In this document: piece after piece, positions 7,701 to 38,578 of the stretch
How the letters are laid out: each line of letters opens with the position of its first letter
Position numbering within the stretch: position 1 is the first letter of the stretch
Assembly: GCA_965200155.1 (NCBI GenBank)
Contig: CBDATR010000001.1
Coordinates: forward strand, 1-38,635
Direction of reading: 5' to 3'
Source of the DNA: Nitrosopumilaceae archaeon
GTDB taxonomy: Archaea > Thermoproteota > Nitrososphaeria > Nitrososphaerales > Nitrosopumilaceae
DNA length: 38,635 nt
The notes under the pieces: generated by a model
Seen by the model: only the letters and a program-made list of their open reading frames with translations
What the model was told of the DNA's origin: nothing
The model's database searches: none
Position numbers and translations under genes: made by a program

Positions 7701-7942
7701 GTAACCATTTAGGTCGCGTTATAGATTAACACCTAGATGGTAAATTCACGGACATATGTGAGGCAACATGATAGAAAAAACAAGAACGGACATGTTAGTG
7801 GTGTGTCTTGGTATGAGTTCACGTCTTCCGGAATCTTATGCACAAATCACATTAACTGTCGCGATCAGTTATGCGTAAATTTAGACACAGGTGAACTCAT
7901 ACGTGTCTTGAACAGTTGCCCGGGGGTGACCTAAACTGTTAC
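7701..7942. mobile_element. MITE-B, older TIR element interrupted by MITE-A
   Basis: Imperfect TIR gtaaccatttaggtcgc / gtgacctaaactgttac (14/17); interior resembles 36384-36570 and 38437 onward. Confidence 0.65.
7811..7902 (+). mobile_element. MITE-A (92 bp)
   Basis: 12-bp TIR GTATGAGTTCAC; 8-bp TSD gtgtcttg. Confidence 0.96.
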
Positions 7943-8190: not shown

Positions 8191-8280
8191 GTATGAGTTC
8201 ACGTCTTCCGGAATCTTGTGCACAAATCACATTAACTGTCGCGATCAGTTGTGCGTAAATTTAGACACAGGTGAACTCAT
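8191..8280 (+). mobile_element. MITE-A, right end 2 bp short
   Basis: Near-identical to the other copies; TSD agtgaatc. Confidence 0.95.
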
Positions 8281-8392
8281 AGTGAATCTGGTCGCAAATG
8301 CTACAAAGAGCGGTCCCGGATTCTGGAGTTTGCTCAAATATGATTGTGTCATGCTACGCAAAATATACAAACCATGTTCCATAACCATTACC

Positions 8393-9444: not shown

Positions 9445-10743
9445 TCACACTTTTGTGGAAACAAATCGTTCTGTTGTCTCTGATATGTGTCGTATGTCAG
9501 AATCCGAGTGCGCCGTGGATATGGCACCCATCTTTCCCGGCAGAAAGAATATGCCCTGAGTCATTAGGTATTTGTGATATCTCTGCAGCATTTCGTGATT
9601 ACAATGTGCGGTATCTGTGGCGTTATTTACGGCGCTGATATCCTTATCCAGAAAGTGCACCATGAATAATGATCCTTCGCCGGTTACACTCACTCTATCA
9701 CCTAGTGTTTTTCTTAGGGCATCGCGCATGTTCTGTCCCATGCGGTTTATGCGGCTGTATGCATCCTGGTTCAGTGCACTCAGGGTTGCTGCGCCCGCTA
9801 CCATGGATACCGGGTGGGCAGAAAATGTTCCGCCTCCCACATAGCAGCGCTGATTCCTTGACATCTTGTATGTGTCTGCCAGACTCATCACATCTTCCTT
9901 GCCACAAATAACGCCAAGGGGCATGCCGCCCCCGACAACCTTTCCCAGGGTTACTATATCGGGATCCAAGTTTCTGTCCTGGTAGATACAACCGCGCCTG
10001 AGCCGGAACCCTGTCACAATCTCATCTAGCATGAACAGGCCACCGCAACCCTTGACATAGTCCTGTACTGTATGCAGGTACTCTGGGGTGGCCGGTATGC
10101 CGCCCCCGCCACCCAGCAGGGGCTCCATTATGACACCTGCTATATCCTCTCTTACGCGACCCATTATGTCAAGCGTCTTGTCTACGTCATTATACGGCAC
10201 AGACACAATATTGTCATCCCCTGTGCACCCGGTACTCTCAGGTTCTGAGAATGGCCAATTGACCGTCTTGAGAAGATCCGATGTGTATCCATGCCATCCA
10301 CCATCCATTTTTACTATAATCTTGCGACCTGTGGCGGCCCGTGCAAGCCTTACGGCATACATGGCGGCCTCAGTCCCTGATGCTACGTATCTCAACTTCT
10401 CCGCGGCTGGCACTGTGTCATGTAATATTCGAGACAGCCTTATGGTAGGCTCGTTGACCGTGCCATACATCCATCCAGATTCCAGCTGATCCACCATAGC
10501 CTTGTGTACAGTGTGCGGCTTGTGGCCCAATATGAGGGACCAGTGCCCCATCCAGTAGTCTGTATACTTGTTGCCATCTACATCCTCCAAATGATTGCCC
10601 TCTGATGATTGTACGACAAAGGGGTAGGGATCAAAGTACCGGATATTGTGTGATACACCGTTCACATGATACCTGCATGATTCGGAGAATGTTTCCTGGG
10701 ATGTGGGTGTCATGCTCCTGTATTTCTCCTCCCAGGCACTCAT
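9445..10743 (-). CDS. hemL: glutamate-1-semialdehyde 2,1-aminomutase (class III aminotransferase)
   Basis: DVDGNKYTDY, SGTEA, LDEIVTGFR, LGKVVGGGMP, GTFSAHP. Confidence 0.88.
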   Translation of the reverse strand: MSAWEEKYRSMTPTSQETFSESCRYHVNGVSHNIRYFDPYPFVVQSSEGNHLEDVDGNKYTDYWMGHWSLILGHKPHTVHKAMVDQLESGWMYGTVNEPTIRLSRILHDTVPAAEKLRYVASGTEAAMYAVRLARAATGRKIIVKMDGGWHGYTSDLLKTVNWPFSEPESTGCTGDDNIVSVPYNDVDKTLDIMGRVREDIAGVIMEPLLGGGGGIPATPEYLHTVQDYVKGCGGLFMLDEIVTGFRLRRGCIYQDRNLDPDIVTLGKVVGGGMPLGVICGKEDVMSLADTYKMSRNQRCYVGGGTFSAHPVSMVAGAATLSALNQDAYSRINRMGQNMRDALRKTLGDRVSVTGEGSLFMVHFLDKDISAVNNATDTAHCNHEMLQRYHKYLMTQGIFFLPGKMGAISTAHSDSDIRHISETTERFVSTKV

Positions 10744-10934
10744 GGTGATAATTTACTAGCACTCAATATATAGCGTCAACCATAAGTCTTTGATCATGGT
10801 TTTTCATGGAGCCCGTACTGGACTGATCCAGTAAAGCAGTGCATGGCTTTGGTTATTGGTTACACGTTACACACTGCTGCCTCTGGTTGGGCGGCAGAGC
10901 CACCCCGTGGACGACTCGCTCATCCGCCCTATGC

Positions 10935-12110
10935 AGAGACCGGTTACTCCACGCCGCGTTGATATTGGAATTCAGGGTTACATCGGGTACGGGTAACCGG
11001 TTCCTCTGCCACTAGTTGGACTTGCCTGTGTGATCACATGGGCGGCATGCTTGCCTGGATATCCCACTGGCATGCATTTTGTTCAAGCTTACCGTATTCA
11101 GTAACCATGGTGTGGGCGGCATGCTTGCCTGGATATACCACTGGCATGGCCGCCATCCCTATCTGCTTGGCCTCGCACTTCTGGTCTGGTTTTTGTAGGG
11201 AGCCACTAACGCGGCTCTCTCACATGAGGCGGTTCATTGCTCGTTTGCGGTTCCCATCGTGAGCAGTCATCTTTTACGGACAAGTTCCCAGCAGCTACCT
11301 TGTCCATACTTTTAGTGACTTCATGGACTATCCTATTGATGGAGTCATTCGCGATATTACTGGACTTCTCTTGTAGTGATATTTGTTTCCACATCTTCCT
11401 CTGGCGGCGCCTGCCCTTCCGGGTTTTCACACTGTACGAGTATCTACTCTCCCACAATATCTCATGTTGTGAATCTGTGTCAACTGTTGTAGCTATGTGT
11501 TTGCCACCGACATCCACTCCTTGAACCACGCCAGTTGGTATGTATTCAGCACACTCCTCTTTGATATGCGCCTCAAGTAAGCGTTCTCGTGACTTTGTTT
11601 TCTTGTAGGCTCTCTCAACTATCTTGAATGAGCGCATATCCCAAGAACAATCAACCGGCTTTGTTGTTCTGACAAAGTCGCGCAGACCTACCCAAAACCA
11701 CCGCGTCTTGTTGGCGGCCTTGTACATTATAGTGTGATTATCCCGTCGCTCTTCCGGCGAGACGGGATGTTACCGGAATTATCCTCACATGTACGCGACG
11801 GACGCATCCATGATGGTATCCTCGCCATACACAATGGTAACTCGCGTAACCACTCATTATTATGGCGCCACCGGGAGCAGCTTGCTTATCATGCCATTTC
11901 TTAGCATGACCTTGGGCGGGTGGAACTGGCGAGCATTAACAGGCTCCACATATCCGGAATCTTTCCCTCGACTATATCCTCTGGTAAGTCGAATATGCCC
12001 ATCTCCTCGACTTCCGGTATGCATTCATCGACTGCCATGTTGAATGCCACCCGTGAGTGCTCGCCCATTATCTTGGCCCGGAGAGAATCTTGTCCGGTTT
12101 TATGATGGTA
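10935..12110 (-). pseudogene. tnpB: TnpB-family RNA-guided nuclease remnant; ends approximate
   Basis: RVAFNMAV (N-terminus), GVDVGGKH (RuvC-I), RQACRPCDH (zinc finger), NINAA (degenerate RuvC-III); multiple frameshifts. Confidence 0.8.
11039..11148. repeat. two 36-bp direct repeats separated by 38 bp
   Basis: tgggcggcatgcttgcctggatat(c/a)ccactggcatg at 11039-11074 and 11113-11148. Confidence 0.9.
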
Positions 12111-12188
12111 CGAATCCCTCTTATGGTGGCCGCTACAGTTACTGTGTTCCTCGCTCTATTTTTTAACCGGTATGATTCAATACATATT

Positions 12189-12566
12189 ATGAATGGCATC
12201 CGTCCTCCCGTTATACTATATGATAACAAGTGCAATCTGTGCACAAGGTTTGCCCATATAGTTAACTGGCTGGCCCGGGGCAATCTCAGCATTGCCGGTC
12301 ACTATACCGCTCACGGGAACCGTATACGATCCGCGGTCTTGGATTCATCGGCGACAGAAATGTTCTGGGTAGTGGGGGAGCGCAAGGCATATGGGGGTAG
12401 GGCGGCGCTGCTACCCTTGGTGTCGGCTATCCTTACCGCCCGGGAAGGTCTGGGTCTGATGGGCGGTACCACGCAGTGTACCGATACATGCAGTGTCTTT
12501 GTACGCTCCGCCAGCATTTTGTCCCGTAGTCGCAAGATGGTATATGAACCGGTAAATATGCTGTAA
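12189..12566 (+). CDS. DCC1/DUF393-like thiol-disulfide oxidoreductase
   Basis: ILYDNKCNLC (DxxCxxC); ATG at 12189 lies outside the mobile element. Confidence 0.8.
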   Translation: MNGIRPPVILYDNKCNLCTRFAHIVNWLARGNLSIAGHYTAHGNRIRSAVLDSSATEMFWVVGERKAYGGRAALLPLVSAILTAREGLGLMGGTTQCTDTCSVFVRSASILSRSRKMVYEPVNML

Positions 12567-12598
12567 AATTAATTAAATCTAGAAAAATACAGCCTCTT

Positions 12599-13102
12599 GT
12601 GCAGTCCATACTCAGGGAAAATGGCGGCCTAGTATACCGACGTGCCACACCAGAAGACCTAATACCTGTCATGGAGATAAATCTCAAGACATTACCGGAG
12701 CACTACTCTGACTACTTTTATGAGAGTCTCCTAGCAGAACTGCCCGAGGCGTTCCTGGTTGCCTTGCAGGGGAATACCCATGTAGGCTATATCATGTGCA
12801 AGTCGGAGTATGGTTTTTCATGTTTTCGGCGCCTGGGATTTGTTAAAAAGGGACACCTTGTCTCGGTTGCGGTTCTTCCCGAGTACCGGCAGCGGGGAAT
12901 AGCCAGAATACTTGTTGAAGAGGCGCTCAAGGGAATCCAGGAAAGACAGTGCGTAGAGATGTACCTTGAGGTGCGTTGCAGTAACAATATAGCGGTAAAT
13001 CTGTACCAAAAGTTGGGCTTTATAATAAAACAGCAGCAGAGATCATACTACCGGGATGGCGAGGATGCGTTTTTGATGGCTATCGAATTCTCAAAACAGT
13101 AA
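12599..13102 (+). CDS. ard1: N-terminal acetyltransferase (Ard1/RimI-like)
   Basis: NLKTLPEHY, GHLVSVAV, LEVRCSN, YYRDGEDA. Confidence 0.92.
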   Translation: MQSILRENGGLVYRRATPEDLIPVMEINLKTLPEHYSDYFYESLLAELPEAFLVALQGNTHVGYIMCKSEYGFSCFRRLGFVKKGHLVSVAVLPEYRQRGIARILVEEALKGIQERQCVEMYLEVRCSNNIAVNLYQKLGFIIKQQQRSYYRDGEDAFLMAIEFSKQ

Positions 13103-13127
13103 ATAATTGGTGAGCGACCATTCTTGT

Positions 13128-13343
13128 ATGGAAAGGCGTCGGACCGCCGGAATAACAATTTTCGTCCTGTGTATCGGCGGGTTTTTCGTATATGCTTTTC
13201 TCCTAATGCTCTCAGAATGGAGTCCCATCGTAATGCAACTCTCCATGCTCATGATGGTGGGCGCAATAATGGGTGTAATTGCGTGGATTGGATACTCCAT
13301 GGCCACCACACGCCACTCACCTGCCTCCATAAGCGACGAGTGA
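13128..13343 (+). CDS. small two-helix membrane protein
   Basis: Two hydrophobic segments ending WIGYSMATT; follows ard1. Confidence 0.7.
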   Translation: MERRRTAGITIFVLCIGGFFVYAFLLMLSEWSPIVMQLSMLMMVGAIMGVIAWIGYSMATTRHSPASISDE

Positions 13344-13405
13344 CACCTGTGTGAATATACATCACGATGATTGGCACGTACCATTGGGGCGTGAGCTCTT
13401 GAATA

Positions 13406-13506
13406 GTATGAGTTCACGTCTTCCGGAATCTTATGCACAAATCACATTAACTAGAACAACCTGTTCCATCAGTTGTGCGTAAATTTAGACACAGGTGAAC
13501 TCATAC
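13406..13506 (+). mobile_element. MITE-A variant (101 bp)
   Basis: TIRs intact; TSD cttgaata; central gtcgcg replaced by agaacaacctgttcc. Confidence 0.95.
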
Positions 13507-14337
13507 CTTGAATATCCTGGCATCTACCACGGTCTGGTAATACCTGGGCCCCACCGCCCTGACCAGCCGGAACCCAATCACCTGCAACCTGGCATCCACT
13601 ACATCACTTAGGTGTTCTGCGGATAGGGCCGCGGCCTCCTGTTTCCTGTCCGCATGTATGTGTGAATAGTAGTGTATAATGCCCCCATTCCTGGTTACGC
13701 GTACGGCACAATCCAAAAACTCATCAGACCTCTCTGGGAGCGGCATAAGCGTACGGTCTGCCATATCGGGCATTGTGGACGCTATGTGACGCGCGTCATC
13801 CGTAACCGGAATCACCTTGCCCATAATCTTGTTGTGTCTCATACTCTCGATACACAATTCCGTAGCCCGGGGATTTACGTCAACATTATACACAGTACAT
13901 GGACTCTTTTTGGCTATCTGTACCGAGTATGCGCCCATGCCGCCGAACATATTCATGATCATCTCGCCATCACATACCATATCTGCGATACGGGCCCGTT
14001 CAGTAGAGAGTCGGGGTGAAAAGAATGCCTTTTCCACATCCACGGAGAATACACATCCATTCTCCTTGTATGTGGTCTTGGTGTCCCCGCTTCCCGCTAT
14101 TAATTCCAGGTTCCGTACGCGATACTCGCCACTCACGTCTGATATTTGGCAAAAAACCCTGTCTACTATCTTTATGTTATCTAATAGTGTCCTGCCAATA
14201 CATTCCCTCTTGGAGTGTAATGATGGCGGTATCCTAATCACTATGATGCTGCCTATCTGATCAAACGCCGATACCACAGAATGAATCTCTGTATCACTGA
14301 GTACGTCCTGCAGGGCGCGTTTAAGTAGCCGGGTCAA
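13501..14337 (-). CDS. Trm5/TYW2 (Met-10+) family tRNA-modifying SAM transferase
   Basis: FDQIGSI, KENGCVF, FFSPRLSTER, MFGGMG, IIHYY. Confidence 0.9.
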   Translation of the reverse strand: MTRLLKRALQDVLSDTEIHSVVSAFDQIGSIIVIRIPPSLHSKRECIGRTLLDNIKIVDRVFCQISDVSGEYRVRNLELIAGSGDTKTTYKENGCVFSVDVEKAFFSPRLSTERARIADMVCDGEMIMNMFGGMGAYSVQIAKKSPCTVYNVDVNPRATELCIESMRHNKIMGKVIPVTDDARHIASTMPDMADRTLMPLPERSDEFLDCAVRVTRNGGIIHYYSHIHADRKQEAAALSAEHLSDVVDARLQVIGFRLVRAVGPRYYQTVVDARIFKV

Positions 14338-16112
14338 CTGGAATAGTAGAACCGGCCATCGGATTTTTGCTGTTTGTCCAACCGGCTCTCCAATTTGTTC
14401 ACCCGGGGCCGCATTGTCTTTTCATCCCTCCGGAAGGACACTCCCAGTGATGCCAAAAAGTGGTTCATTGCTGCGGGCTTGGACATGGGCTCTGATGCCT
14501 GGCCATGCAACCCGGACTTGCCCTCGAATATTATAATCCTGTCCGATACCATGTCCAGAAGCTGCAGGTCATGATCAATTATGATGGCGGATCTGCCAAA
14601 GGATCTGACAAACTTTTGGACAAATTTTGCAACGGCTATACGATCCTCCACATCCAAAAACGCGGAGGGCTCATCAAGGCAGTAGAGATCAGCCTTCTGC
14701 AGCAAGGCGGCGGCCACGGCCACCTTCTGCAACTCCCCGCCGGACAGATTTCTGACAGATTTTGTGTACAGCTTTGTGACCCGGAGGGGCTTTATTATCT
14801 GCTCCTCCATCTGGCTACCTGCTATACTGCAGTCCGCCGCCTTGGCAAGAAGGGCTTCTACCTCCATGTCCGTGTCGCCTTGTAGATACTGCGGCTTGTA
14901 TGATATCTTTATCCCCTCTGTTATACTGCCAGAGTCTGGCTTGTGTATGCCTGCAAGTATCTTCATCATCGTGGTCTTGCCCAGCGCATTGGCGCCTATG
15001 ACGCCCAATATTTCACTCTGTCGTATCTCGCCCCCTGATATGTCCAGTGAAAATGACTGGTATGTCTTTGTCATGGCCGGATACTTCATTATTATCGTGT
15101 CTGAGAATACATCGTCGTTAGACGTTGATGCCACAAAAGTAAATCTCTTGTCGCGGAATCGTACGTTCTCTTGCGGCAGGTAACCGTCCAGAAATACGTT
15201 TATTCCAACCTTGGTGGACAAGACACTGGATACAATACCATACGCCGTTGGCTCGCCATATAACACGTCTATATAATCACTAAGTGAGTCCAGCAGTGTC
15301 AGGTCGTGCTCCACCACCATGACACTCTTGTTCATGTCTGCAAGACCCTGTATAACCTTGGCTACCCCCGTCCTCTGGAAGATATCATTATACGAGGATG
15401 GTTCATCAAAGAAGTAGAAGTCCGCGTCCTTGCATGCCGCCGCCGCTATGGACAGTCTTTGCAGTTCCCCGCCGCTAAGATCAGTCAGGGGTTGGTCCAC
15501 CGAGTTTCTCAGGTTTAGCTCATCGATAAGCGTACGTGCTGCGCCCCGCTCATCAAACTTGTCTAAAAGATCCCTTCCGGTTCCGTCAAAGGCGGTAGCC
15601 ACCTTGTGTACCTGTTGCGGTTTTATGGAGGCGCGGATATGACCGTTCTTTATCATGTCAAAATGTGCCCATAACTCGGTACCGGCAAAGCGCCGCAGTA
15701 CCGTATCCCAGTCTGGTGTATCTGCATATTCTCCGAGGTTTGGAATCATTCCACCTGATAATATGTTCACTACCGTACTCTTCCCCATGCCGTTGCGGCC
15801 CAGCAGTCCCACAACTTCCCCCTTTCTTGGTGTGGGCAGGCGGTACAGCCTGAAGGAATTCGGTCCGTACTGGTGCACCTTGTCGGTCTTTAGCTCTGAT
15901 GCCAAATTCACTATGGTAATTGCATCAAAGGGACACACCTTGACACATATGCCACAGCCGTTACAGATGTCCTCGTCTATGTGGGCTTTTTTATCATCCA
16001 GCGTGATGCAATCGGCGCCAGACTTGTTTACGGGACAGTATTTTATGCATTCCAGGCCACACTTTCTTGGCTGGCAGAGATCCTTGTCCAGGACTGCTAC
16101 TCTATGTGTCAC
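14334..16112 (-). CDS. ABCE1/RLI ribosome recycling ATPase
   Basis: N-terminal Fe-S Cys cluster; two ABC domains (GRNGMGKS, GANALGKT, LSGGELQ twice). Confidence 0.97.
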   Translation of the reverse strand: MTHRVAVLDKDLCQPRKCGLECIKYCPVNKSGADCITLDDKKAHIDEDICNGCGICVKVCPFDAITIVNLASELKTDKVHQYGPNSFRLYRLPTPRKGEVVGLLGRNGMGKSTVVNILSGGMIPNLGEYADTPDWDTVLRRFAGTELWAHFDMIKNGHIRASIKPQQVHKVATAFDGTGRDLLDKFDERGAARTLIDELNLRNSVDQPLTDLSGGELQRLSIAAAACKDADFYFFDEPSSYNDIFQRTGVAKVIQGLADMNKSVMVVEHDLTLLDSLSDYIDVLYGEPTAYGIVSSVLSTKVGINVFLDGYLPQENVRFRDKRFTFVASTSNDDVFSDTIIMKYPAMTKTYQSFSLDISGGEIRQSEILGVIGANALGKTTMMKILAGIHKPDSGSITEGIKISYKPQYLQGDTDMEVEALLAKAADCSIAGSQMEEQIIKPLRVTKLYTKSVRNLSGGELQKVAVAAALLQKADLYCLDEPSAFLDVEDRIAVAKFVQKFVRSFGRSAIIIDHDLQLLDMVSDRIIIFEGKSGLHGQASEPMSKPAAMNHFLASLGVSFRRDEKTMRPRVNKLESRLDKQQKSDGRFYYSS

Positions 16113-16170
16113 GGCGTGACATGCGCACTCGGGGTTTTATACTATTGTGGCTATATGGGTACCGTCAATA

Positions 16171-17213
16171 GTACGAAAAGTAAGTTCGCTTAGGATCCGG
16201 CGTACAGTAGTTCAGATTGCACAAACCACGAAAGGCTATGGTAAAGAGAATAACAGAGGAATCAATAGTAAGACAGCGCAAAAGAGGCGTTGCCGCCACC
16301 AAAATGTATGAGTTCACGTCTTCCGGAATCTTATGCACAAATCACATTAACTGTCGCGATCAGTTATGCGTAAATTTAGACACAGGTGAACTCACACCAA
16401 AATAGCTCAAGACCTGAAACAAGACACGTACGAAGATTATGAATCAGAGGACGGGAACTACTCGAGTAAAGATTGGCATGCCTATGATACCAATCACCGC
16501 CACCCAGATACGAATGGCAACTGAAGCATACAGCAAGGATCCCGCTGGAGTAGTACGTATTGAAGAGACTGATACATGATACATATCGCGCAGTATATCG
16601 CATAATGAAAAAGAACGGTACGGCAAGATCATCACCTGCAAAGTCAGAGTGGGTACGCTATGAGCGTAAATATTCCAATGCAATGTGGCACTGGCATGTC
16701 ATGAAAGATGAGCGCTTCGAGGGACTGAATCTCATAGATGATGCATCTAGGTGCATCGTCGGGGCGGCACTATTTGAGCATGCAACCTCAGAGAACGCCA
16801 CTCTATTACTGAGACTGGTAATGAAACGATTCGGCGCCCCTGCATCCATACTATCGGATAACGGCGCGTGTTCCGTAGGACAATAAAAGGGCAAGAAAAG
16901 CTGGAAACCCACTATTCGAGGAAGAACTGCTGGATCAAGACATCGTACTAATCAATTCCAGCCCATACCATCCACAGACAAATGGCAAACTGGAGCGCTT
17001 CTACAGAACGATTGAGGATGTGATATGGCATTATGACAGCCTCCGGGATTATGTAGACTACTACAATGAGAGAAGATTGCACTTCTTACTGTATAGATAA
17101 CGGCGAAACACCACTTCAGGAATAAAAAGGCGACCCAGACAATTAGGGCAAATGATGCAAAATGGATGGAGCGGGATGCCAATGACTAGCGGACCGACTT
17201 TTCATACATTACA
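16171..17213 (+). mobile_element. IS481-family remnant with frameshifted transposase
   Basis: IDDASR, ILSDNG, PYHPQTNGKLERF, YNERRLH; imperfect IR 16171-16190 / 17188-17207 (16/20); right end reads ACA at 17211-17213. Confidence 0.85.
16306..16395 (+). mobile_element. MITE-A inserted in the IS481 transposase
   Basis: TSD accaaaat; removing it restores ATKIAQDLK. Confidence 0.95.
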
Positions 17214-17310
17214 ATTGTTGGGCGCGATCCATTATACTAATATCTAAGACCAAAGTTTTTAACTTTTATCTTGCTTTAAAGTACCATATTTAGCTGCGCA
17301 CAATACCATA

Positions 17311-17414
17311 TTGACATGCCAAATTAACCACCTCCTTGGGGGCGCGCAAATAAGTCTGTGATAATTGCGATATTTTGATCAAATTAGTCGCCCAAAGACT
17401 TATGGTGGCCGCCA
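17311..17414. mobile_element. MITE-C remnant; left boundary approximate
   Basis: Ends in cttatggtggccgcca followed by TA; ttgacatgc segment shared with 38488-38578. Confidence 0.5.
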
Positions 17415-17464
17415 TAATTGTGGCGAACAGCCGCGCATAAATTTGGATATATTTGAACTCGTGC
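17415..17464 (+). repeat. highly degenerate right half of an old MITE-A
   Basis: taattgtggcgaacagccgcgcataaatttggatatatttgaactcgtgc aligns without gaps to the MITE-A 3' half. Confidence 0.65.
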
Positions 17465-17618
17465 AACAGAGGCGGGTTCCATAATTACACGCCCTACCTG
17501 ATGTCGTACTTGCATATCTTCAAATATTTATTATCAAAGTGGACGATATAACTGCCGCGTTTCTGTCGCACAAATACAGACAAATTCATGTGAACCAAGG
17601 ATATTCAGACTTAATAAT

Positions 17619-18095
17619 ATGCGCAACAATGTTGTTACTGTGAAAATAGACGAGCTAGACAAGAAAGTGATGTATAACTTGCACCTAGATAGTTCTACAT
17701 CCATACCCATTCTATCCAAAAAGCTTGGGGTAAATTCCTCTATGTTATATAGCCGGATAAAGCGACTGCTCAAAAATGGTGTGATCAAAAAATACACCAT
17801 ACAAGTGGATGACTCAAAGCTTGGTGTATATGTCTGTGCCCAGATAGGAATTAATCGCAGTCCCAAGTTAAAGCGATACATACATGAACAGCTTTTACAA
17901 TTTCCCAGCATTGTGTCAATAGCGGAAGTGTCAGGTAGGTTTGACCTAATGGTAACGGTGAGAGTAAAGAGCATAGAACTGCTACATTCCACCATAATTG
18001 ACAAGATAGGCAAGATGGAGGGTGTTCAAAATACAGAAACCTTTGTGGAGTTGGAGCGTATAGAAAAGGATCTGGAGTACTTAAAACCGGTCTAG
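17619..18095 (+). CDS. Lrp/AsnC family regulator
   Basis: IDELDKK..HTH..RIKRL..GVIK and VSGRFDL. Confidence 0.93.
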   Translation: MRNNVVTVKIDELDKKVMYNLHLDSSTSIPILSKKLGVNSSMLYSRIKRLLKNGVIKKYTIQVDDSKLGVYVCAQIGINRSPKLKRYIHEQLLQFPSIVSIAEVSGRFDLMVTVRVKSIELLHSTIIDKIGKMEGVQNTETFVELERIEKDLEYLKPV

Positions 18096-18571
18096 AACTT
18101 TTCGTCCCATGTACCAGAATTTATCTCTGTGGTTATCTCTTTTGGTGACTTACCCTCAATCTTTATTCCCAATGCTAAGCACGTTCCCACTATAGTTTTT
18201 GTTACAGACTTTACGGTGGTCGCATAAGAGGAATCTAGCTTTGTTTTGGCAATCTTGATAGCTGCGTCCATGGTTATCTCGCCCGCCCACTCGGTGCCAG
18301 AGGCTCCGGAGCCCTTTTTGACACCCGCCTCTTTGAGTATAAGTGGAGAGGACGAAGGTATGCCGACGTCTATTTCATATTTTTTTGTATCCGTGTCTAC
18401 CGATACAGTAACCGGTATCTTCATACCATCAAAGTCACTTGTTCGCTCGTTAATCTTCTTTATGACTTCCATGATATTTACTCCCAGAGGGCCCAATGCA
18501 GGACCCAAAGGAGGACCGGCCGAAGCGGCACCACCAGTTACCAAGGAGGATACAGTTTGAACTTGTCCCAT
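18092..18571 (-). CDS. rpl11: 50S ribosomal protein uL11
   Basis: GPPLGPALGPLGVN motif. Confidence 0.97.
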   Translation of the reverse strand: MGQVQTVSSLVTGGAASAGPPLGPALGPLGVNIMEVIKKINERTSDFDGMKIPVTVSVDTDTKKYEIDVGIPSSSPLILKEAGVKKGSGASGTEWAGEITMDAAIKIAKTKLDSSYATTVKSVTKTIVGTCLALGIKIEGKSPKEITTEINSGTWDEKF

Positions 18572-18840
18572 AATCACAAGCCAGGATGCAAAAATTTAAT
18601 CCTTTGTATAGTGGATTATGCATATAGGTCAGGGCATCCATGATAGTGGTAGATTTTGTGCGTGATCGTTTTGAACATAGTTGCTTTGCAGACCTATTTG
18701 CACAATGTCCAGTAAATACAATAACTCATACAGGTAACCAACCCCGTGCCAGAGGGCACACTATGCGATTCTCATTCACCGTAAAGTTAGCCAGATCCCG
18801 GATTTAGAATGCCAGTGTCACTGCCCAGTACGGCAGTTAG

Positions 18841-19302
18841 TCATACTTCGGCAGATATTTTCAGATAGTTGGCATCAACGGTGACAGGAAGCTGATATGC
18901 AGCATCTAGTAGTATAACGGTAGCCTCCTCCTTTTCACGATCTATTCTGGTTATAGTAGCCTTCATTCCCTTGAATGGTCCGCCAGTGATCTCTACAGTA
19001 TTCTCCACACTCAGTGTTGAAACCACGGATTTTTTCACCAAGTACCCTTCAATGTCTGAGAATGCAAGTTCACCGCGCAGTTGTCCACGGATGTGTCGGA
19101 CCCCATCAACTGCGTGATATACGTCATTGGAGTCCAGTGCCTCTATTACTACGTATCCTCTTAGGCCTTCCACTAATAATACTGCACGTATATTGGAAGT
19201 GCCAGATCGTAGCTTGGCCTCCAAGAGATTCATCACTTTCTTCTCCTGTCCCATATTGGTCTTTACTGCATACAGATGAGTGTCTTGGGATTCTTGAGTC
19301 AT
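18841..19302 (-). CDS. spt5: transcription elongation factor Spt5
   Basis: GQEKKV, LRGYVVIEA, KOW motif VEITGGPFKG. Confidence 0.96.
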   Translation of the reverse strand: MTQESQDTHLYAVKTNMGQEKKVMNLLEAKLRSGTSNIRAVLLVEGLRGYVVIEALDSNDVYHAVDGVRHIRGQLRGELAFSDIEGYLVKKSVVSTLSVENTVEITGGPFKGMKATITRIDREKEEATVILLDAAYQLPVTVDANYLKISAEV

Positions 19303-19303
19303 T

Positions 19304-19477
19304 CTATCTACCATATGTCGCAACAGCAAAGACAAACTGTATGATAAAACCTATGGTACCTATAGATGCAATACCCAAGAGAACTAGCCGCAAGTGCTGT
19401 TTGTATTCATCCTGATCGGGCTTCTTGGTGAGCTTTATGGTATTTATCATATTCTTCAACGTCTGCCGCGGATTCAT
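19304..19477 (-). CDS. secE: SecE/Sec61-gamma
   Basis: KKPDQDEY plus one TM helix with GTIGFII; immediately upstream of spt5. Confidence 0.93.
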   Translation of the reverse strand: MNPRQTLKNMINTIKLTKKPDQDEYKQHLRLVLLGIASIGTIGFIIQFVFAVATYGR

Positions 19478-19515
19478 TAGTTGGAATAAATAACCAGTCA
19501 ATATAATTTTGTCGT

Positions 19516-20289
19516 ATGGATCTGCTAGTGGCGTACGATGATGATCCGGCAGGCCTCAACATGGCAAAACACTTGGCTGTCAACATGTCGCAGAAGGACA
19601 AGGTGTACAAGGGTGATGCATATGACCTAGCCATTATATCTAGCCCGACCATATCTGCGGACTGGCTGGAATCTCAATTCAGGTATGACAGGTATGTATT
19701 TCTCTCCAGGCATTCGGCCGAATCCGGTCGACTGGCACTGACATGTCATTCAACAGGTAACTTTGCGGAAGCCCGCTTTGGAGGCAATCCAAGAGAGGTG
19801 GCCATACCATTCTCAGCACTACTTAAGAGGTATATGCAAAGACTATGGGCACGCCGGGACGGCCTAGCGAAGTTCCAGATAACACTGGAAGCCACACACC
19901 ACGGTCCCACCGCATTAAGCAAGCCGTGCATATTTGTTGAGATAGGTACGACACCAGACCAGTGGAACGACTACGCGTTATGCGGAACTGTGGCATCCAT
20001 ATTGCACGAAGCCATAACAGAGGATACAACATACCCCGCGGCCATTGGATTTGGCGGGACCCATTATCCCGCGGCGCATACCAATATGGTGATAAACGGC
20101 AAGTATACCCTGGGTACAATAATTCCCAAACACAGCCTAGAACACATAGATTCAGAATTATTGGAGCACGTACTAACCAGAAATCCCGATGCAGAGGCGG
20201 CACTACTGGACTGGGATGGAATGGGGGCGCATAAGCGGCGCATACTAGACATGCTGGAGAATACTGATCTGGAGGTGGTACGAATTTGA
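19516..20289 (+). CDS. dtdA: archaeal D-aminoacyl-tRNA deacylase
   Basis: FLSRH, LTCHSTGN, EATHHGPT, FVEIG, GFGGTHY. Confidence 0.93.
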   Translation: MDLLVAYDDDPAGLNMAKHLAVNMSQKDKVYKGDAYDLAIISSPTISADWLESQFRYDRYVFLSRHSAESGRLALTCHSTGNFAEARFGGNPREVAIPFSALLKRYMQRLWARRDGLAKFQITLEATHHGPTALSKPCIFVEIGTTPDQWNDYALCGTVASILHEAITEDTTYPAAIGFGGTHYPAAHTNMVINGKYTLGTIIPKHSLEHIDSELLEHVLTRNPDAEAALLDWDGMGAHKRRILDMLENTDLEVVRI

Positions 20290-20588
20290 GCAAGGCTGAA
20301 ACAGTGTACAGGAAATTGATGGAAGTACCACCGGGAAGCGTGGTCTCATACTCTGAATTGGCCCGAGCGGTGGGTATGGAGAATGGTCAGAGAGCGGTGG
20401 GTCGTATACTGAACCGTAATCCCTATCTGATTGCAGTTCCGTGCCACCGGGTCATAATGGCAGACGGGCGCCTGGGTGGCTATGTGGGCGGCTCTGAGGT
20501 AAAGGCGAATCTTTTAAGAAAAGAAGGCATAGTAGTGAAGGGCGATCGCGTGTGCGATATGGACAAGATAATGTACAGATTCCAGTGA
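20286..20588 (+). CDS. ogt: O6-methylguanine-DNA methyltransferase
   Basis: RAVG and PCHRV active site. Confidence 0.93.
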   Translation: MSKAETVYRKLMEVPPGSVVSYSELARAVGMENGQRAVGRILNRNPYLIAVPCHRVIMADGRLGGYVGGSEVKANLLRKEGIVVKGDRVCDMDKIMYRFQ

Positions 20589-20685
20589 CATACAGGACGA
20601 ATTAGGATGAAGAGTTCGGCTTGTATCGAAACCCGGACATGCCCAGAGATTAATGGTGCATACTGGAGAAAGGTGCATACACATG

Positions 20686-20777
20686 GTATGAGTTCACGTC
20701 TTCCGGAATCTTATGCACAAATCACATTAACTGTCGCGATCAGTTATGCGTAAATTTAGACACAGGTGAACTCATAC
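20686..20777 (+). mobile_element. MITE-A without TSD
   Basis: Full 92 bp; flanks tacacatg / cttgcatc differ. Confidence 0.95.
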
Positions 20778-20845
20778 CTTGCATCTGCTGATTTAGCCTG
20801 CCTGCCATCCCTGTCGTGATATTTTATGGAAAATCACCGCCAAGA

Positions 20846-20861
20846 CTTATGGTGACTGCTA
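20846..20861. repeat. MITE-C terminal repeat abutting tnpB copy B
   Basis: cttatggtgactgcta followed by TA. Confidence 0.7.
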
Positions 20862-20863
20862 TA

Positions 20864-21829
20864 CGAGGATCATTCTAATTACATACCACACCGGCTTGAC
20901 AATGACAGAATCATACCATCATGGGTAAGACCACCAATCCGTCGTGGTGAGTTCAAGTTGGGCCTGTGGGGTTTTGGTGTGGTGAGAACAACCAAACCAA
21001 TAGATCGTTCCCAGGGCATGCGCTCATTCAATATAGTTGAACGAGTAACCAATAGTAGGGAACGTCAATTCTAGATTCACATCAATATACGGGAGAAACC
21101 ACCTGCCGACCGGCGTTGTTCGCGGCGTGGATGTCGGCGGGAAACATCTAGCTGTAACAGCTGACACGAATGGCAGAACGATGATTCACAACATGAGACA
21201 TCGTTCCATATTGCGGGAGATTAGTGCACTCCAGAGTATTAGAACGCGAAAGGGTAAGCGCAGGAAGCGAAAGATTGAGAAACAAATCACTCAACTACGA
21301 CAAACATAGCGAGCGACTCCATGAATAGAGTAGTCCACGCGGTCACCAAAGGTGTGGACAAGGTGGTACTAGAGGATTTATCACCGAAAGCAGTGACCAG
21401 TCATGGCGGGAACCACAAAATAACAATGAACCGTTCCATGCGCGAGAATCGTGTCGGTGAGTTCCGCCGGAAAGCAGTACAAAAGTGCGAAGCACTGGGG
21501 ATTGAATTGGCATCTGTGCCAGCGAAATACACGAGGGGGCGGTTTACCCGCCCAACGAGCCAGACCTGTCATGTGTGTGGACACGTTGACGACAAATCAC
21601 GATCAACTAGGGACACTTTCAATATGTAACCAGGAATTTCACACCGATATCAACGCGGCGTTTAGTAACCGGTTTCCCTGTATGGGGCGGCAGAGCGTGT
21701 CGTCCGGGGGGCGGGGAACCGTTACCCGCCCAACCGGAGGCGTCATGGCGGGAATAATGGCGACAAGCCAAAGCCATGTACCATCCAGGAACGATGTGCC
21801 ATGTTCTCAAAGACTTATGGTGACCGCTA
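20864..21829 (+). mobile_element. tnpB: 5'-truncated tnpB element (copy B), pseudogene plus 3' end
   Basis: GVDVGGKH, VLEDL, TSQTCHVCGH, HTDINAA; collinear with copy A; ends cttatggtgaccgcta+TA. Confidence 0.85.
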
Positions 21830-21960
21830 TATTCAAGACTGCCAGTAGTGCAGCAGGACTTGCAAACAGGAAAATCGTCCCCATAACACGAACCACGGAG
21901 AGGCACGTTGTAAATTCTTCTAGAGATACTCTACATTTTTATTAATTTTAGAATGTTTTT

Positions 21961-23631
21961 ATGATCATGGGATCCCGCTTTTGTACCATACGACGCAATA
22001 TTGCAAGAACCCGGGACCTGATTATAGATGGTACGGCAGCGGCCGGTTCCGGTCACCCGGGCGGTTCGCTATCCATGGCCGAGATTCTGGGATGCCTCTT
22101 CTACAAACACATGAGGTACGACGCAAATAATCCACACTGGGAAGACAGAGACCGGCTCATACTGTCCAAGGGTCATGCATCACCCGGTCTTTACTCCAAC
22201 TTGGCGGTCTCAGGATTCATAGATGCGCAAGAGATCACAACCTTGCGGAGTCTGGGCAGCAGGCTACAGGGTCATCCTGATCTCAAATGCCCCGGCGTGG
22301 AATTCTGTGGCGGTTCGCTGGGAACAGGACTGTCATATTCGTTGGGGATAAGTCTGGCCATGAGACTTGATGGACGTGCATCCCGCGTATTTGTCATAAT
22401 CGGCGATGGTGAGTGTGATGAGGGGCAGATTTGGGAGGCCACCATGTCGGCTTCCAAGTTTGGCCTGGACAACCTCACAGTAATACTTGATCGTAATTAC
22501 GTCCAACAGGACTCATATACAGAAAATGTGATGCCACTGGATACTATATCCAGTGACAAGATGGTATCGGCCCGTACGGATACAGATTCCTGGAGGACAG
22601 GCCACAAGTGGCGTGCATTTGGATGGAATGTAATAGAGGTTGACGGTCACCGTATAGAGCAGGTTGACCGGGCGCTATCCCAAGCCGCAGAGCACCGGGG
22701 CGCGCCCACCATCATAATCGCCCGTACTGTAAAGGGCAGGGGAGTAGAGCACATGGAAGATAACCCGCAATGGCACGGCAAGGCACCCTCAAAGGATTTG
22801 GTGCCGATCATACATGCAGAGCTACGATCACAGACAGCCCTGGCCCCATCAATAATAGCGGGAGACATGACCCGCCTGGACCGGGAAGTGAGCAGATGCG
22901 ATACAGCAGGGGCCGACTATATACACCTGGATGTAATGGACGGCGTATTTGTCCCCAACCATACCTTTGATCATACCAAGGTACGGGAGCTGCGAGCCCT
23001 GACACATATACCTTTTGATACGCATCTTATGATAACTGATCCGGCTCACCAGGTATCCAAGTATGCAGAGGCAGGAAGCGATATCATAACAGTACACGCG
23101 GAGGCATGTACTCCGTCAGAGTTCGGCGAGATTCACGACTACCTAAAAAGTAATGATGTGGGTGCAGGCATCGCCATCAACCCCGGAACCGATGTGCCCT
23201 CCTGGATTACGCCCTTCATACCTACTCTGGACCAAGTCATAGTGATGTCCGTGGTGCCGGGAAAATCGGGACAAAAGTATATGCCAGAGGCACACAAAAA
23301 GACACAAAACATATCCGCATTGCTACAGGAAGGGGGCTTTGGAGGTGTGATAGAGGCAGACGGCGGGGTCAACATGGAGAATATTGGACAGTGTTTCAAT
23401 GACGGATGTCGGGCCTTTGTAGGAGGCAGTTCCATGGTAGGGCAGGCTGACATGGCAGAGGCCATGGGCGACATGCGCCTTGCCTTGCGTGATGCGCGCA
23501 GGCGGCATCTCATACAGGAAGCGTACAGCAGAGGCGGATCCCCGCTGGTGACACAATGGGCCCAACTGCACACCATAAACTCCACATTCGAGACAATACT
23601 GGATATGGCCAAGGAGGCCGGTTTGGCATGA
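21961..23631 (+). CDS. transketolase N-terminal subunit fused to ribulose-phosphate 3-epimerase
   Basis: SGHPGGS, LSKGH, GDGECDEG, then APSI, HLDVMDG.FVPN, DTHLM, EADGG. Confidence 0.93.
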   Translation: MIMGSRFCTIRRNIARTRDLIIDGTAAAGSGHPGGSLSMAEILGCLFYKHMRYDANNPHWEDRDRLILSKGHASPGLYSNLAVSGFIDAQEITTLRSLGSRLQGHPDLKCPGVEFCGGSLGTGLSYSLGISLAMRLDGRASRVFVIIGDGECDEGQIWEATMSASKFGLDNLTVILDRNYVQQDSYTENVMPLDTISSDKMVSARTDTDSWRTGHKWRAFGWNVIEVDGHRIEQVDRALSQAAEHRGAPTIIIARTVKGRGVEHMEDNPQWHGKAPSKDLVPIIHAELRSQTALAPSIIAGDMTRLDREVSRCDTAGADYIHLDVMDGVFVPNHTFDHTKVRELRALTHIPFDTHLMITDPAHQVSKYAEAGSDIITVHAEACTPSEFGEIHDYLKSNDVGAGIAINPGTDVPSWITPFIPTLDQVIVMSVVPGKSGQKYMPEAHKKTQNISALLQEGGFGGVIEADGGVNMENIGQCFNDGCRAFVGGSSMVGQADMAEAMGDMRLALRDARRRHLIQEAYSRGGSPLVTQWAQLHTINSTFETILDMAKEAGLA

Positions 23632-25245: not shown

Positions 25246-25337
25246 GTATGAGTTCACCTGTGTCTAAATTTACGCATAACTGATCGCGACAGTTAATGTG
25301 ATTTGTGCACAAGATTCCGGAAGACGTGAACTCATAC
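25246..25337 (-). mobile_element. MITE-A
   Basis: TSD tcatggcg; 17 bp after the tal stop codon. Confidence 0.96.
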
Positions 25338-38487: not shown

Positions 38488-38578
38488 TAGCGAACACCAT
38501 ACTTTTTTGACATGCAAGACGGGGGGTTGTGTCCGTCAAATGCAGGATTTGTCACCCAGAGACTTATGATGGCTGTTA
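38488..38578. mobile_element. MITE-C (about 91 bp) inserted in MITE-B
   Basis: tagcgaacaccata ... cttatgatggctgtta+TA; same TIR type as the tnpB element. Confidence 0.6.

Follow-up and report, generated by a model that had tools for sequence, protein, structure and literature searches.

We analysed a 38,635-bp stretch of DNA from a Nitrosopumilaceae archaeon (GCA_965200155.1, contig CBDATR010000001.1), hereafter called the window. In the spacer between hemL and a DCC1-like gene, positions 10771-12135 hold a decayed 1365-bp solo-tnpB element (copy A) that lies between 16-bp inverted repeats. Its components are listed below, with LE denoting the tnpB-proximal and RE the tnpB-distal end.

10769..10770, no strand assigned: TA outside the RE-side terminus, one copy of the target duplication (from the sequence and from the TA duplication of the family as read from paralogous empty sites)
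10771..10792, plus strand: terminal inverted repeat of the RE end, consisting of the 16-mer and a conserved TCTTTG (common to ~140 termini)
10771..10975, minus strand: putative omegaRNA scaffold region, from the end of the tnpB remnant to the RE terminus (helices with compensatory changes suggest an RNA role)
11206..11769, minus strand: largest tnpB remnant, 187 aa from stop to stop, with the RuvC-I motif GVDVGGKH (translation; similarity to a copy on C10)
11901..12105, minus strand: N-terminal tnpB remnant in a different frame (translation; DNA similarity to about positions 406-673 of fuller elements)
12120..12135, minus strand: terminal inverted repeat of the LE end, with 0 mismatches to the consensus
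12136..12138, minus strand: flank CTG (on the tnpB strand) directly outside LE, where the expected extra TA is missing (sequence; motif statistics)

Copy A is called tnpB because of its similarity to other copies in the genome. The 187-aa remnant is 55% identical to the C10 copy (E=3.2e-24; 49-50% by blastp), and a Pfam search of two copy A pieces returned no family at E values up to 0.01. No tnpA lies inside the element, as a first-pass annotation made from the letters of the sequence had stated; the inverted repeats that it had described around the tnpB remnant are likewise real, and their arms are identical at 14 of 16 positions. Further inside copy A, a local duplication of 39 bp occupies 11038-11076 and 11113-11148. 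Throughout the window, the 16-mer was found at 10771(+), 12120(-), 17399(-), 20846(-), 21814(-) and 38563(-), which includes every additional full copy named before. These six matches, obtained with up to three mismatches, compare with 0.61 expected, and six were reached in none of 100 shuffles. The extra TA that had been reported for five of the ends is present immediately outside five of the six copies, while the sixth (12120-12135, the tnpB-proximal end of copy A) has TG. Copy A is accordingly flanked by TA on the RE side only and lacks it at LE.

The window contains a second tnpB copy (copy B) and several pieces with related or adjoining ends:

17213..17414, minus strand: left end of the IS630-family partner element, a fragment of ~200 bp that reaches the common terminus, with TA outside (blastn)
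20686..20777, no strand assigned: copy of an unrelated 92-bp MITE, directly next to the right end of IS630 type (the genome has 582 copies that are near full length)
20778..20861, minus strand: 84-bp fragment from the right end of the IS630-family partner or of its MITE derivative (96% identical to the C13 element at 1958-2041)
20862..21829, plus strand: copy B of the tnpB element, 5'-truncated, extending from element position ~490 as far as the RE terminus (21814-21829) and interrupted by many stops (DNA identity, translations)
~38488..38578, no strand assigned: MITE of 91 bp whose inverted termini are the same (the 88-bp MITE C10:327409-327496 is 81% identical)

Copy B shares 88-91% DNA identity with fuller copies and has a TA at 21830-21831, outside its RE terminus. 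In translated comparison it showed 57% identity with seven stops, and both of its Pfam matches were below threshold (Cas12f1-like_TNB at 25 bits, cut-off 26.3; OrfB_IS605 at 18.9 bits, cut-off 30.5). The fragment 20778-20861 is inserted at a TA within copy B, with the junction ...CTGCTA/TA/CGAGGATC. By blastn, 17213-17414 matched the IS630-family element C13:13693-15733 with 96% identity over 3-131 and 89% over 231-308. The earlier statement that no partner transposase lies in the window stands for the coding sequence, which is absent; the end fragments 17213-17414 and 20778-20861 of the partner are nevertheless present. The partial inverse copy noticed earlier at 38488 turned out to be the other end of the 91-bp MITE and belongs to the same terminus family.

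Genome-wide, this family comprises about 140 termini in 2.38 Mb. A search allowing up to three mismatches gave 183 matches, of which 141 were kept as termini; TA flanks 129 of the 141, with T at -2 in 133 and A at -1 in 132. A 21-mer pattern, at up to two mismatches, matched the genome 104 times and its reversal not once. The terminal 20-22 bp are common to all terminus classes. The terminus was found in 0 of 200 other genomes of the same family, including nine of the genus, and two exact terminus patterns gave no match in genome_contigs and metagenome_contigs, searches from which the window's own genome was possibly excluded. Neighbouring termini form 31 inverted pairs in the genome. These include 16 tnpB elements of 1.3-3.5 kb in addition to copy A, five short tnpB elements (0.96-1.3 kb) and two deletion derivatives (472 and 498 bp). 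At least 17 full-size and five short tnpB elements therefore occupy distinct loci with an inverted repeat at both ends; their flanks are unrelated, and their termini lie at fixed distances from the gene. The sequence just inside the termini is specific to the tnpB elements, with one LE class (n = 27) and two RE classes (n = 29 and n = 11). The same termini also bound MITEs, represented by 18 and 8 termini of an 88-bp type and by a 252-bp type.

Copies A and B are homologous to family copies having RuvC-like OrfB_IS605 and zinc-ribbon TNB domains. One family copy, C10:39333-40253, passes Pfam for both (TNB 40.2 bits, cut-off 26.3; OrfB_IS605 35.1 bits, cut-off 30.5) and scores 91 bits on NF040570; the catalytic motifs GVDVGG, VLEDL and HADINAA were found in pieces. 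The protein is, as judged from its sequence, predicted to be an ordinary prokaryotic TnpB of compact size (~400-450 aa). Its nearest named relatives are labelled Cenarchaeum, and the nearest solved chains are TnpB-like, at E=3e-12 and 7e-12. A chain from a giant virus, 'TnpB-like protein L79' (9b0l), which we take to be a Fanzor2, matched at E=6e-4 only. No tnpB copy in the genome is open from end to end, the longest open frames being 307 and 349 aa. Both window copies are decayed, as previously recognized, with remnants in split frames in copy A and many stops in copy B. One 8-nt frameshifting deletion, located between the zinc finger and RuvC-III, is common to 19 of 27 tnpB copies, which implies that most of them spread without a working tnpB in cis.

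In sister species, relatives of this TnpB are intact, 450-453 aa long and ~50% identical. These homologues are solo genes in TIR/TSD-bounded elements and do not lie beside a Y1 or serine tnpA, and the relatives in the sister genomes G227 and G196 ride IS1595-type ends with 8-bp duplications.

A transposase candidate was found within the same genome. The decayed IS630-family element C13:13693-15733 carries the same 20-22-bp terminus and TA duplication, so that this repeat appears to bound the remnants of an IS630-type transposase, for which the first-pass annotation had suggested a search. Collinear, sub-threshold matches connect the element to Pfam DDE_3 (positions 2-70 at 25.1 bits, 89-141 at 20.3 bits) and to NCBIfam IS630 (NF033545; positions 125-170 and 233-295 of 299, 17-30 bits). 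At four further loci, the 3' part of the partner transposase runs into the right terminus. The transposase is represented by frameshifted pieces only, each below curated cut-offs; two copies have identical frameshifts, and no intact copy was found in the present genome or in the wider collections searched for the terminus. Six IS630 proteins of sister genomes compared with the de-MITEd partner gave three weak matches, with 28-39% identity over 43-71 aa. The tnpB element, the partner and several MITE families have one terminus in common. As all tnpB and partner-transposase copies found in the genome are broken, they are a fossil record and not an active system.

Target duplication was deduced from predicted empty sites that match paralogues gaplessly across the junction. 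Three paralogous empty sites are compatible with a duplication of 2 bp, and two of them have a single TA. The empty site of the IS630-like element matches copies of another MITE carrying a single TA. That of the tnpB element C10:271053-272583 corresponds to C24:331479-331548, which has a single TA and from which the whole element is missing. For the short element C35:24049-25238, C9:1041-1141 also matches without a gap, but this paralogue has GT at the site. We also considered that the TA might be part of the repeat instead of a duplication, an idea dropped because the paralogous empty sites are against it.

The hemL/DCC1-like gene pair is retained in sister genomes. Three of these have a spacer of 97 bp, compared with 253 bp for G196 and 1388 bp for G272; in the present genome the spacer consists of 80 bp plus the copy A element. 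An orthologous empty site was not obtained there, as the sister spacers are too diverged for aligning a TA. In addition, contigs of four public runs from two studies were compared with window positions 9500-22500. DNA contigs cross copy A with 0-8 differences, and no joint skipping 10771-12135 occurs among the joints listed; with respect to an empty allele this says little, because contigs drop rare variants. Contigs from RNA libraries partly cover 10825-11539, and this coverage is not proof of transcription.

Taken together, copy A is very probably a dead, non-autonomous tnpB-only transposon that was moved in trans by an IS630-family DDE transposase of the same genome. This reading rests on termini and a TA duplication that match those of the IS630-family element, on the empty sites and on the fact that no Y1 or serine transposase was found, and it agrees with the DDE-mobilised, non-autonomous TnpB element postulated earlier, which was favoured by each of the checks suggested with it, as far as these were run. 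The transposase would move the tnpB element, which has none of its own, by cut-and-paste, and would likewise mobilise the MITE families with the same termini.

Cas12 descends from TnpB, which is itself a compact nuclease for genome editing. In IS200/IS605 elements, TnpB cuts the emptied donor site, whereupon the transposon is copied back. For the elements described here, RNA made from the RE end may take its guide from the DNA just past the terminus, with the duplicated TA first, and TnpB may recognise T-T-G just 5' of the duplication on the LE side. With guide and recognition arranged in this way, TnpB could cut the restored empty site after excision, which would favour re-copying of the element.

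Two sets of observations bear on this proposal. First, the RE end has the features of a structured RNA. Of 33 proposed pairs, 90.6% are paired, compared with 34-47% when the partners are slid, and 11 cells have compensatory changes, a number reached in 0 of 500 shuffles; the structure behind these values is our own and is at an advantage, having been built from the very sequences tested. The helices are conserved between subfamilies, with some compensatory changes. An RNAalifold consensus on a MAFFT alignment was weak (-13.2 kcal/mol, covariation term -0.47) and misses one hairpin. The structured RNA at the 3' end of the element is presumably an omegaRNA.

Second, the flanks are biased on one side. 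G occupies position -3 in 23 of 27 LE flanks, compared with 4 of 40 RE flanks (p=4e-10) and 12 of 63 termini that do not belong to tnpB elements (p=4e-9). In the short tnpB subfamily, the true LE flanks read ACTA in all five cases. Among the relatives on IS1595-type ends, 17 of 19 LE flanks have G as the base directly 5' of the 8-bp duplication, vs 4 of 19 RE flanks (p=4.7e-5). On both carriers, T-N-G thus stands directly 5' of the duplication at the tnpB-proximal and not at the other flank. The LE flank CTG of copy A fits T-N-G if TATA lost one TA. The possibility that T-T-G is element sequence was dropped, as it is target DNA in the empty-site paralogue and lies outside the variable 8-bp duplication in G227. 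The one-sided T-N-G resembles a TAM and suggests that TnpB-guided retention may operate on DDE transposons. We tentatively go one step further, in a proposal that we regard as quite possible though not as the likelier outcome: one TnpB lineage of this genus may have switched between DDE carriers (IS1595 with 8-bp duplications in sister species and IS630 with TA duplications in the present genome), the T-N-G footprint would be its TAM, and the guide would start from the duplicated bases.

A rather unlikely, yet serious, alternative accepts the mobilisation and holds that the LE T-T-G bias has nothing to do with TnpB, reflecting instead a transposase preference, local context or copies that are not independent. 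The motif was noticed post hoc in the present genome, where all copies are dead and most have the tnpB-breaking deletion, and in G227 and G196 six of the 19 triplets read TAG and could be stop codons of upstream genes. T-T-G was, after its discovery, predicted and then found in G227 and G196, and the position of the bias with respect to the duplication does not differ between two unrelated carriers, of which one makes 2-bp and the other 8-bp duplications. Against the alternative also speak the missing bias at the other end of the elements and at IS630-like/MITE termini, and flanks that are all different beyond the motif. In the G227 elements only one side shows the bias, although their two termini agree in all of 24 bp, and a flank motif specific to one orientation is not expected from a symmetric transposase. 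Moreover, a second tnpB subfamily of the present genome, bounded by termini shared with the first, carries a different triplet, TAC, in 5/5. If TnpB-guided retention is indeed behind the motif, RNA-guided homing would work for cut-and-paste TIR transposons as well and would shape which insertions survive. The genus offers a clean natural comparison, with related TnpBs on two DDE carriers and numerous independent insertions whose boundaries and duplications are exact, and with the intact G227 and G196 elements the idea is open to a direct test. A literature search of titles and abstracts found no paper tying TnpB to IS1595 carriers.

As to the mobilisation itself, a very improbable alternative is that copy A derives from an IS607-type (serine) or IS200/IS605-type (Y1) tnpB element, with the TA serving as recombination core or target motif. 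Serine exchange at a TA core also places a TA at either side and leaves one TA in the empty site, so that the empty sites alone do not exclude a serine recombinase. The IS607_TnpB model of NCBIfam is slightly ahead of IS200_TnpB (69 vs 51 bits), both scores being far below cut-off, and a single resolvase gene was found in the sister genome G272. Neither Y1_Tnp (PF01797) nor Resolvase (PF00239) had a match in the present genome, whose assembly is 87.6% complete. Among five sister genomes, Y1 was found in 0/5 and Resolvase in 1/5, compared with DDE_3 in 5/5 (9-67 matches). At 22 tnpB loci of the sister genomes, inspected with ~1.5 kb of flank, an IS630 fragment lies beside tnpB at one (L033), and at G142:C3 an IS630 transposase adjoins an N-truncated tnpB. 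To our knowledge, long TIRs are not a feature of IS607, and we know of neither Y1 nor serine enzymes that make 8-bp duplications, as seen for the G227/G196 relatives. The 20-22-bp inverted repeats at the tnpB ends and the target duplication further separate the elements from IS200/IS605 and IS607, described as lacking both TIRs and TSDs in the relevant part of a 2026 review (PMC13565253), and the same ends bound the element with IS630 transposase remnants.

That independent MITEs flank tnpB remnants by chance, with tnpB outside any TIR-bounded unit, has a negligible probability: MITEs with these termini are common and an unrelated insertion of such an end (20778-20861) abuts the 5' side of copy B, but chance flanking is excluded by the at least 17 full-size and five short two-ended elements at different loci, by their tnpB-specific inner sequences (LE 27; RE 29 and 11) and by the paralogous empty site from which a whole tnpB element is missing.

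Several known systems come close to copy A as interpreted here. Among eukaryotic Fanzors, a DDE transposon as carrier is common; in prokaryotes, a TnpB-type nuclease on such a transposon is rare. Bao and Jurka in 2013 and Saito et al. in 2023 reportedly placed Fanzor1 in Tc1/mariner and further DDE transposons of eukaryotes. As in the account of Fanzor1 in part of PMC13565253, the present elements have a TnpB-family nuclease as passenger of TIR transposons that duplicate TA, and their target duplication adjoins or overlaps what may be the target-adjacent motif of the nuclease. They differ from Fanzors in the archaeal host, the compact prokaryotic TnpB and the position of the conserved flank motif outside the duplication. 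The Fanzor parallel drawn in the first-pass annotation thus holds for the carrier and not for the protein, by sequence an ordinary prokaryotic TnpB.

The same annotation had taken prokaryotic TnpBs to ride TIR-less elements, a view that is out of date: Altae-Tran et al. (2023, PNAS 120:e2308224120; PMC10691335) describe, in the sections considered here, IS630-linked prokaryotic TnpBs with symmetrical ends, the 'DDE-6 large branch', together with solo TnpBs whose ends hardly differ from those of elements that bear a transposase, and which are taken as mobilised in trans. Our elements resemble these in the prokaryotic-type TnpB, the symmetrical IS630-family ends and a tnpB 3' end near the transposon end. 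Unlike in DDE-6, where according to these sections TnpB is combined with an IS630 DDE transposase and a separate HTH protein, tnpB is alone here, and the transposase is on a separate element sharing the terminal 20-22 bp only, a comparison made by description. The main text of that paper, as far as it was available, contains no mention of TSD, target site duplication or IS1595. The copy A element is therefore of a type already published for prokaryotes and is unusually well documented here. Solo-tnpB elements of the IS1341 group, with the derivatives belonging to IS200/IS605, as presented in part of PMC13565253, also have no tnpA, many copies and a presumed mobilisation in trans; they have asymmetric hairpin ends with no TIRs or duplication and depend on Y1 TnpA, whereas TIRs, a TA duplication and no Y1 were found here. 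The corresponding part of the review also states that the benefit of TnpB on cut-and-paste DDE transposons may be small, and treats the question as open.

For the window itself the result is modest, namely a fossil of a published kind of element. What MITEs of the IS630/Tc1-mariner group (Stowaway-like) share with their autonomous partner is limited to the terminal inverted repeats and the TA duplication. The tnpB elements are likewise non-autonomous and share these two features, and true MITEs of 88-252 bp coexist with them in this genome; unlike Stowaway-like MITEs, they are 1.4-1.6 kb long and carry a passenger gene and a structured RNA. The window as a whole testifies to transposon activity that was once heavy and is now extinct in this sponge-symbiont archaeon.

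The 16-bp terminal repeat that the first-pass annotation had placed around a tnpB remnant (copy A) was found in the window as six matches with up to three mismatches, at 10771(+), 12120(-), 17399(-), 20846(-), 21814(-) and 38563(-). This compares with 0.61 matches expected, and six or more were reached in 0 of 100 shuffles; all the further copies listed there, at 17399, 20846, the 21814 region and 38563, were thus recovered. The copy A arms (10771 and 12120) are inverted, identical at 14 of 16 positions and enclose 1365 bp. The partial inverse copy reported at 38488 forms the opposite end of a 91-bp MITE, a short non-autonomous element. The extra TA described beside five repeat ends lies immediately outside five of the six copies, the exception being the tnpB-proximal end (LE) of copy A, where TG is present.

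Features of the window.
9445-10743, minus strand: hemL, one flank of copy A
10771-12135: copy A, with a TnpB-like protein encoded piecewise on the minus strand
11038-11076 and 11113-11148: 39-bp stretch duplicated in the 3' untranslated part of copy A, 36/37 identical
12189: start of a DCC1-like gene, divergent from hemL, other flank of copy A
17213-17414: left-end fragment of an IS630-family element, about 200 bp
20778-20861: right-end fragment of the same family, 84 bp, inserted at a TA within copy B
20862-21829, plus strand: copy B, tnpB element with 88-91% DNA identity to fuller copies, from element position ~490 to the end

Both tnpB copies are decayed, as had been stated. Copy A is readable in pieces only, in which a Pfam search detected no family; compared with better genomic tnpB copies, the translated pieces gave 55% identity (E=3.2e-24; 49-50% in blastp). 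Copy B is truncated at its 5' side and scores slightly under the Pfam cut-off. The duplicated 39-bp stretch of copy A has no further occurrence elsewhere in the genome.

A search for the repeat across the assembly (2.38 Mb in 51 contigs, 87.6% complete, the window being contig C1) revealed a large family. The 16-mer gave 183 matches at up to three mismatches, and 141 were retained as termini according to the bases directly outside and inside the repeat; with this choice, TA precedes 129 of the 141 retained termini versus 2 of the 42 discarded matches. A 21-mer pattern allowing two mismatches matched 104 times, and its reversed form not once. Elements were delimited by neighbouring inverted pairs of termini, and termini were sorted into classes by the sequence directly inside the repeat. 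The classes share no more than the terminal 20-22 bp.

Elements bounded by inverted terminus pairs, and terminus classes.
tnpB elements besides copy A: 16, of 1309-3484 bp, mostly 1444-1642 bp
Shorter tnpB elements: 5, of 963-1317 bp
Deletion derivatives: 2, of 472 and 498 bp
MITEs: 87-88 bp and 252 bp
Single 2041-bp element: C13:13693-15733
Termini, tnpB-distal end (RE): 29+11
Termini, tnpB-proximal end (LE): 27, one misfiled
Termini, 2041-bp element: 19 and 18
Termini, MITEs: 18 and 8
Termini, short-element LE: 7, five true
Termini, others: 4

The TA might have belonged to the repeat itself. To predict empty sites, element flanks were joined minus one TA and the genome was searched for uninterrupted paralogues, which matched without gaps across the junction in three independent cases. 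The 2041-bp element interrupts one copy of another MITE, and uninterrupted copies of that MITE have a single TA at this point; the tnpB element at C10:271053-272583 lies inside a MITE with a single-TA paralogue at C24:331479-331548; and the short element at C35:24049-25238 has a paralogue at C9:1041-1141 with GT at the site. TA as part of the repeat is therefore ruled out, and it is a 2-bp target duplication. Copies of a ~135-bp MITE with GTAACCGTTTAGGTC ends (C10:520080-520212 and 31 more near-full copies) acted as empty sites for IS630-like insertions, two of which entered the same TA (C24:512493 and C10:396244).

Without the three copies of an unrelated 92-bp MITE that it contains, the 2041-bp element is 1751 bp long. 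Pfam DDE_3, the IS630-type transposase domain, gave four sub-threshold matches in the genome, two of them collinear within this element (positions 2-70 and 89-141), and the NCBIfam IS630 model matched it piecewise (positions 125-170 and 233-295 of 299, 17-30 bits). The transposase 3' part is continuous with the right terminus at four further loci; its frame has several breaks, which are common to two copies. In the 87.6%-complete assembly, neither a Y1 transposase nor a resolvase-type recombinase was found. Of five sister genomes searched, none gave a Y1 match, one gave a resolvase and all five gave DDE_3 (9-67 matches each). The tnpB elements share their termini with an element bearing IS630 transposase remnants, which supports the proposed non-autonomous, DDE-mobilised element; very probably, an IS630-family transposase moved them in trans, and the MITEs with the same termini are best read as likewise moved in trans. 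The transposase copies would have decayed afterwards. No partner transposase lies in the window, as had been stated, but end fragments of the partner element are present at 17213-17414 and 20778-20861.

No intact tnpB was found in the genome, where the two longest open frames measure 307 and 349 aa; the 307-aa fragment scores above both Pfam cut-offs for TnpB domains. An identical 8-nt deletion, between the zinc finger and the RuvC-III motif, breaks the frame in 19 of the 27 copies with a matchable stretch, which means that most copies stem from a master with an already defective tnpB. The frame still reads through this stretch in the copy ending at C10:490260. Against solved chains, the TnpB sequence matched TnpB-like ones at E=3e-12 and 7e-12 and 'TnpB-like protein L79', which we take to be a giant-virus Fanzor2, at E=6e-4; by sequence it is nearer to the former. 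The 150-200 nt leading up to the RE terminus contain predicted helices that recur in diverged subfamilies despite different sequence. Across a 20-sequence alignment, a proposed 33-pair structure, derived from the same sequences, was 90.6% paired versus 34-47% with partners slid. Changes on both sides affected five pairs (reached by 15/500 shuffles) and 11 cells (0/500), and the consensus that RNAalifold itself computed was weak. These findings support, but do not prove, a conserved RNA structure at the RE end.

The terminus was absent from 200 other genomes of the same family, nine of them of the same genus, and from two public collections searched with two exact patterns each. The closest proteins outside the genome are 45-50% identical, and those with names are labelled Cenarchaeum, so that the host is a thaumarchaeal sponge symbiont; runs containing the window include sponge metagenomes. 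TnpB relatives occur in 8 of 10 genomes of the genus. Intact homologues, sought as a check, are numerous in the sister genomes G227 and G196 (450-453 aa), each a solo gene in a 1.43-1.57-kb element. The inverted terminus of these elements is a different one, 24 bp long, and their duplication measures 8 bp; among 19 elements with both ends, 14 have a perfect duplication and one more has a single mismatch. A 2690-bp transposon of G227 shares the terminal 13 bp with them, is likewise bounded by an 8-bp duplication, and carries an IS1595-family transposase (138 bits) and a methylase-HNH passenger. Related TnpBs therefore ride two DDE families within one genus, on IS630-type ends here and IS1595-type ends in G227. 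A second, unrelated TnpB family, of 445 aa, in G227 uses the same IS1595-type ends.

Several further observations concern these carriers. The 2690-bp transposon (G227:C1:1770047-1772736) is bounded by inverted repeats of 34 bp, with CAATTTTA as its 8-bp duplication; its passengers are a fusion of an N6/N4 DNA methylase with an HNH nuclease domain, and an overlapping 150-aa ORF. Besides the intact homologues, at least two TnpB families lie inside the same IS1595-type termini in G227 (L063, at C1:352058-353477, L064 and L065), one of 445 aa with an HTH_OrfB_IS605 domain and another with open frames of ~476 aa. The window's genome also contains IS1595 remnants and 30 IS1595-type termini. At C22:6213-7427 and C22:6507-9650, an element with IS1595-type ends and IS1595 transposase remnants interrupts a tnpB element in its RE terminus region; the adjoining bases read TTCTCAAAGA, which is tnpB-element sequence from directly inside the repeat. 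The only near-cis IS630/tnpB pair seen, adjoining an acetate-CoA ligase gene in the sister genome G142 (L046, C3:105-2935), consists of an intact 414-aa IS630 transposase (181 bits) and, 660 bp upstream of it and on the same strand, an N-truncated tnpB.

Beyond the TA, the tnpB elements show T-T-G in their LE flanks: of 27 such flanks, 23 have G at -3, 17 have T at -4 and 16 have T at -5. G at -3 occurs in 4/40 RE flanks of the same family (p=4e-10 versus LE) and at 12/63 termini of the IS630-like element and MITEs (p=4e-9 versus LE). The flanks all differ further out, so the insertions are independent, and an empty-site paralogue shows that the G is target DNA. In the short subfamily, A-C-T-A stands at every one of the five true LE flanks. 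For the IS1595-borne relatives the motif position was predicted before counting: G immediately 5' of the 8-bp duplication was present in 17/19 LE versus 4/19 RE flanks (p=4.7e-5), and T two bases beyond it in 13/19 LE flanks. To our knowledge, TnpB with its RNA is the only component of these elements whose function depends on orientation. Because a transposase would not be expected to distinguish between two identical inverted ends, T-N-G is tentatively read as a possible target-adjacent motif of TnpB; the first guide bases would then be the duplicated ones at the RE.

The hemL/DCC1-like pair flanking copy A is kept in sister genomes, where the two genes are 97 bp (three genomes), 253 bp or 1388 bp apart; in the window's genome the spacer is 80 bp plus the element, and copy A is therefore an insertion. 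For the suggested comparison with empty sites upstream of hemL, the spacers are too diverged to show a single TA. DNA contigs from public runs of two studies contain copy A, and no joint skipping it was among the joints listed. The RE terminus lies 27 bp upstream of the hemL start codon, with copy A oriented like hemL. At 10744-10792 the terminus and TA junction read ...GCTATATATT..., which is TATA-box-like and about rightly spaced for a leaderless archaeal mRNA; copy A may have landed in the hemL promoter and reconstituted it. In the sister genome G272 (L068, on C13), the spacer holds an unrelated ~1.1-kb insertion flanked by direct repeats of spacer sequence, with two small ORF-like stretches.

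The novelty suggested for TnpB on IS630-type ends was overstated. The parts of the literature consulted describe a TnpB branch with IS630 DDE transposases, an HTH protein and symmetrical ends, and solo TnpBs with near-identical ends interpreted as trans-mobilised (PMC10691335, Altae-Tran et al. 2023). A 2026 review restates both points, naming ISL2, IS630 and IS1031, and considers the benefit of TnpB for DDE transposons possibly small (PMC13565253). Elements of this kind are therefore already known; the window contributes a solo, archaeal, dead member. In titles and abstracts, nothing was found on IS1595 carriers of TnpB or on a one-sided flank motif; the supplements of PMC10691335 could hold such data.

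Two other observations were made. A 556-aa ORF at 21961-23631 combines a transketolase N-terminal, TPP-binding domain (Pfam E=7e-47) with a complete ribulose-phosphate 3-epimerase domain (8e-52), either as a fusion of two pentose-phosphate enzymes or through a missed stop. The 92-bp MITE, whose inverted ends are 12 bp long (GTATGAGTTCAC...), is present 582 times in near-full form across the 2.38-Mb genome and is found within other mobile elements, with three copies in the IS630-like element and others inside tnpB elements.

Copies of the 92-bp MITE in the window.
7808-7902
8191-8281
13406-13506
16305-16397
20686-20777
25246-25337
26487-26578
35868-35959
36414-36505
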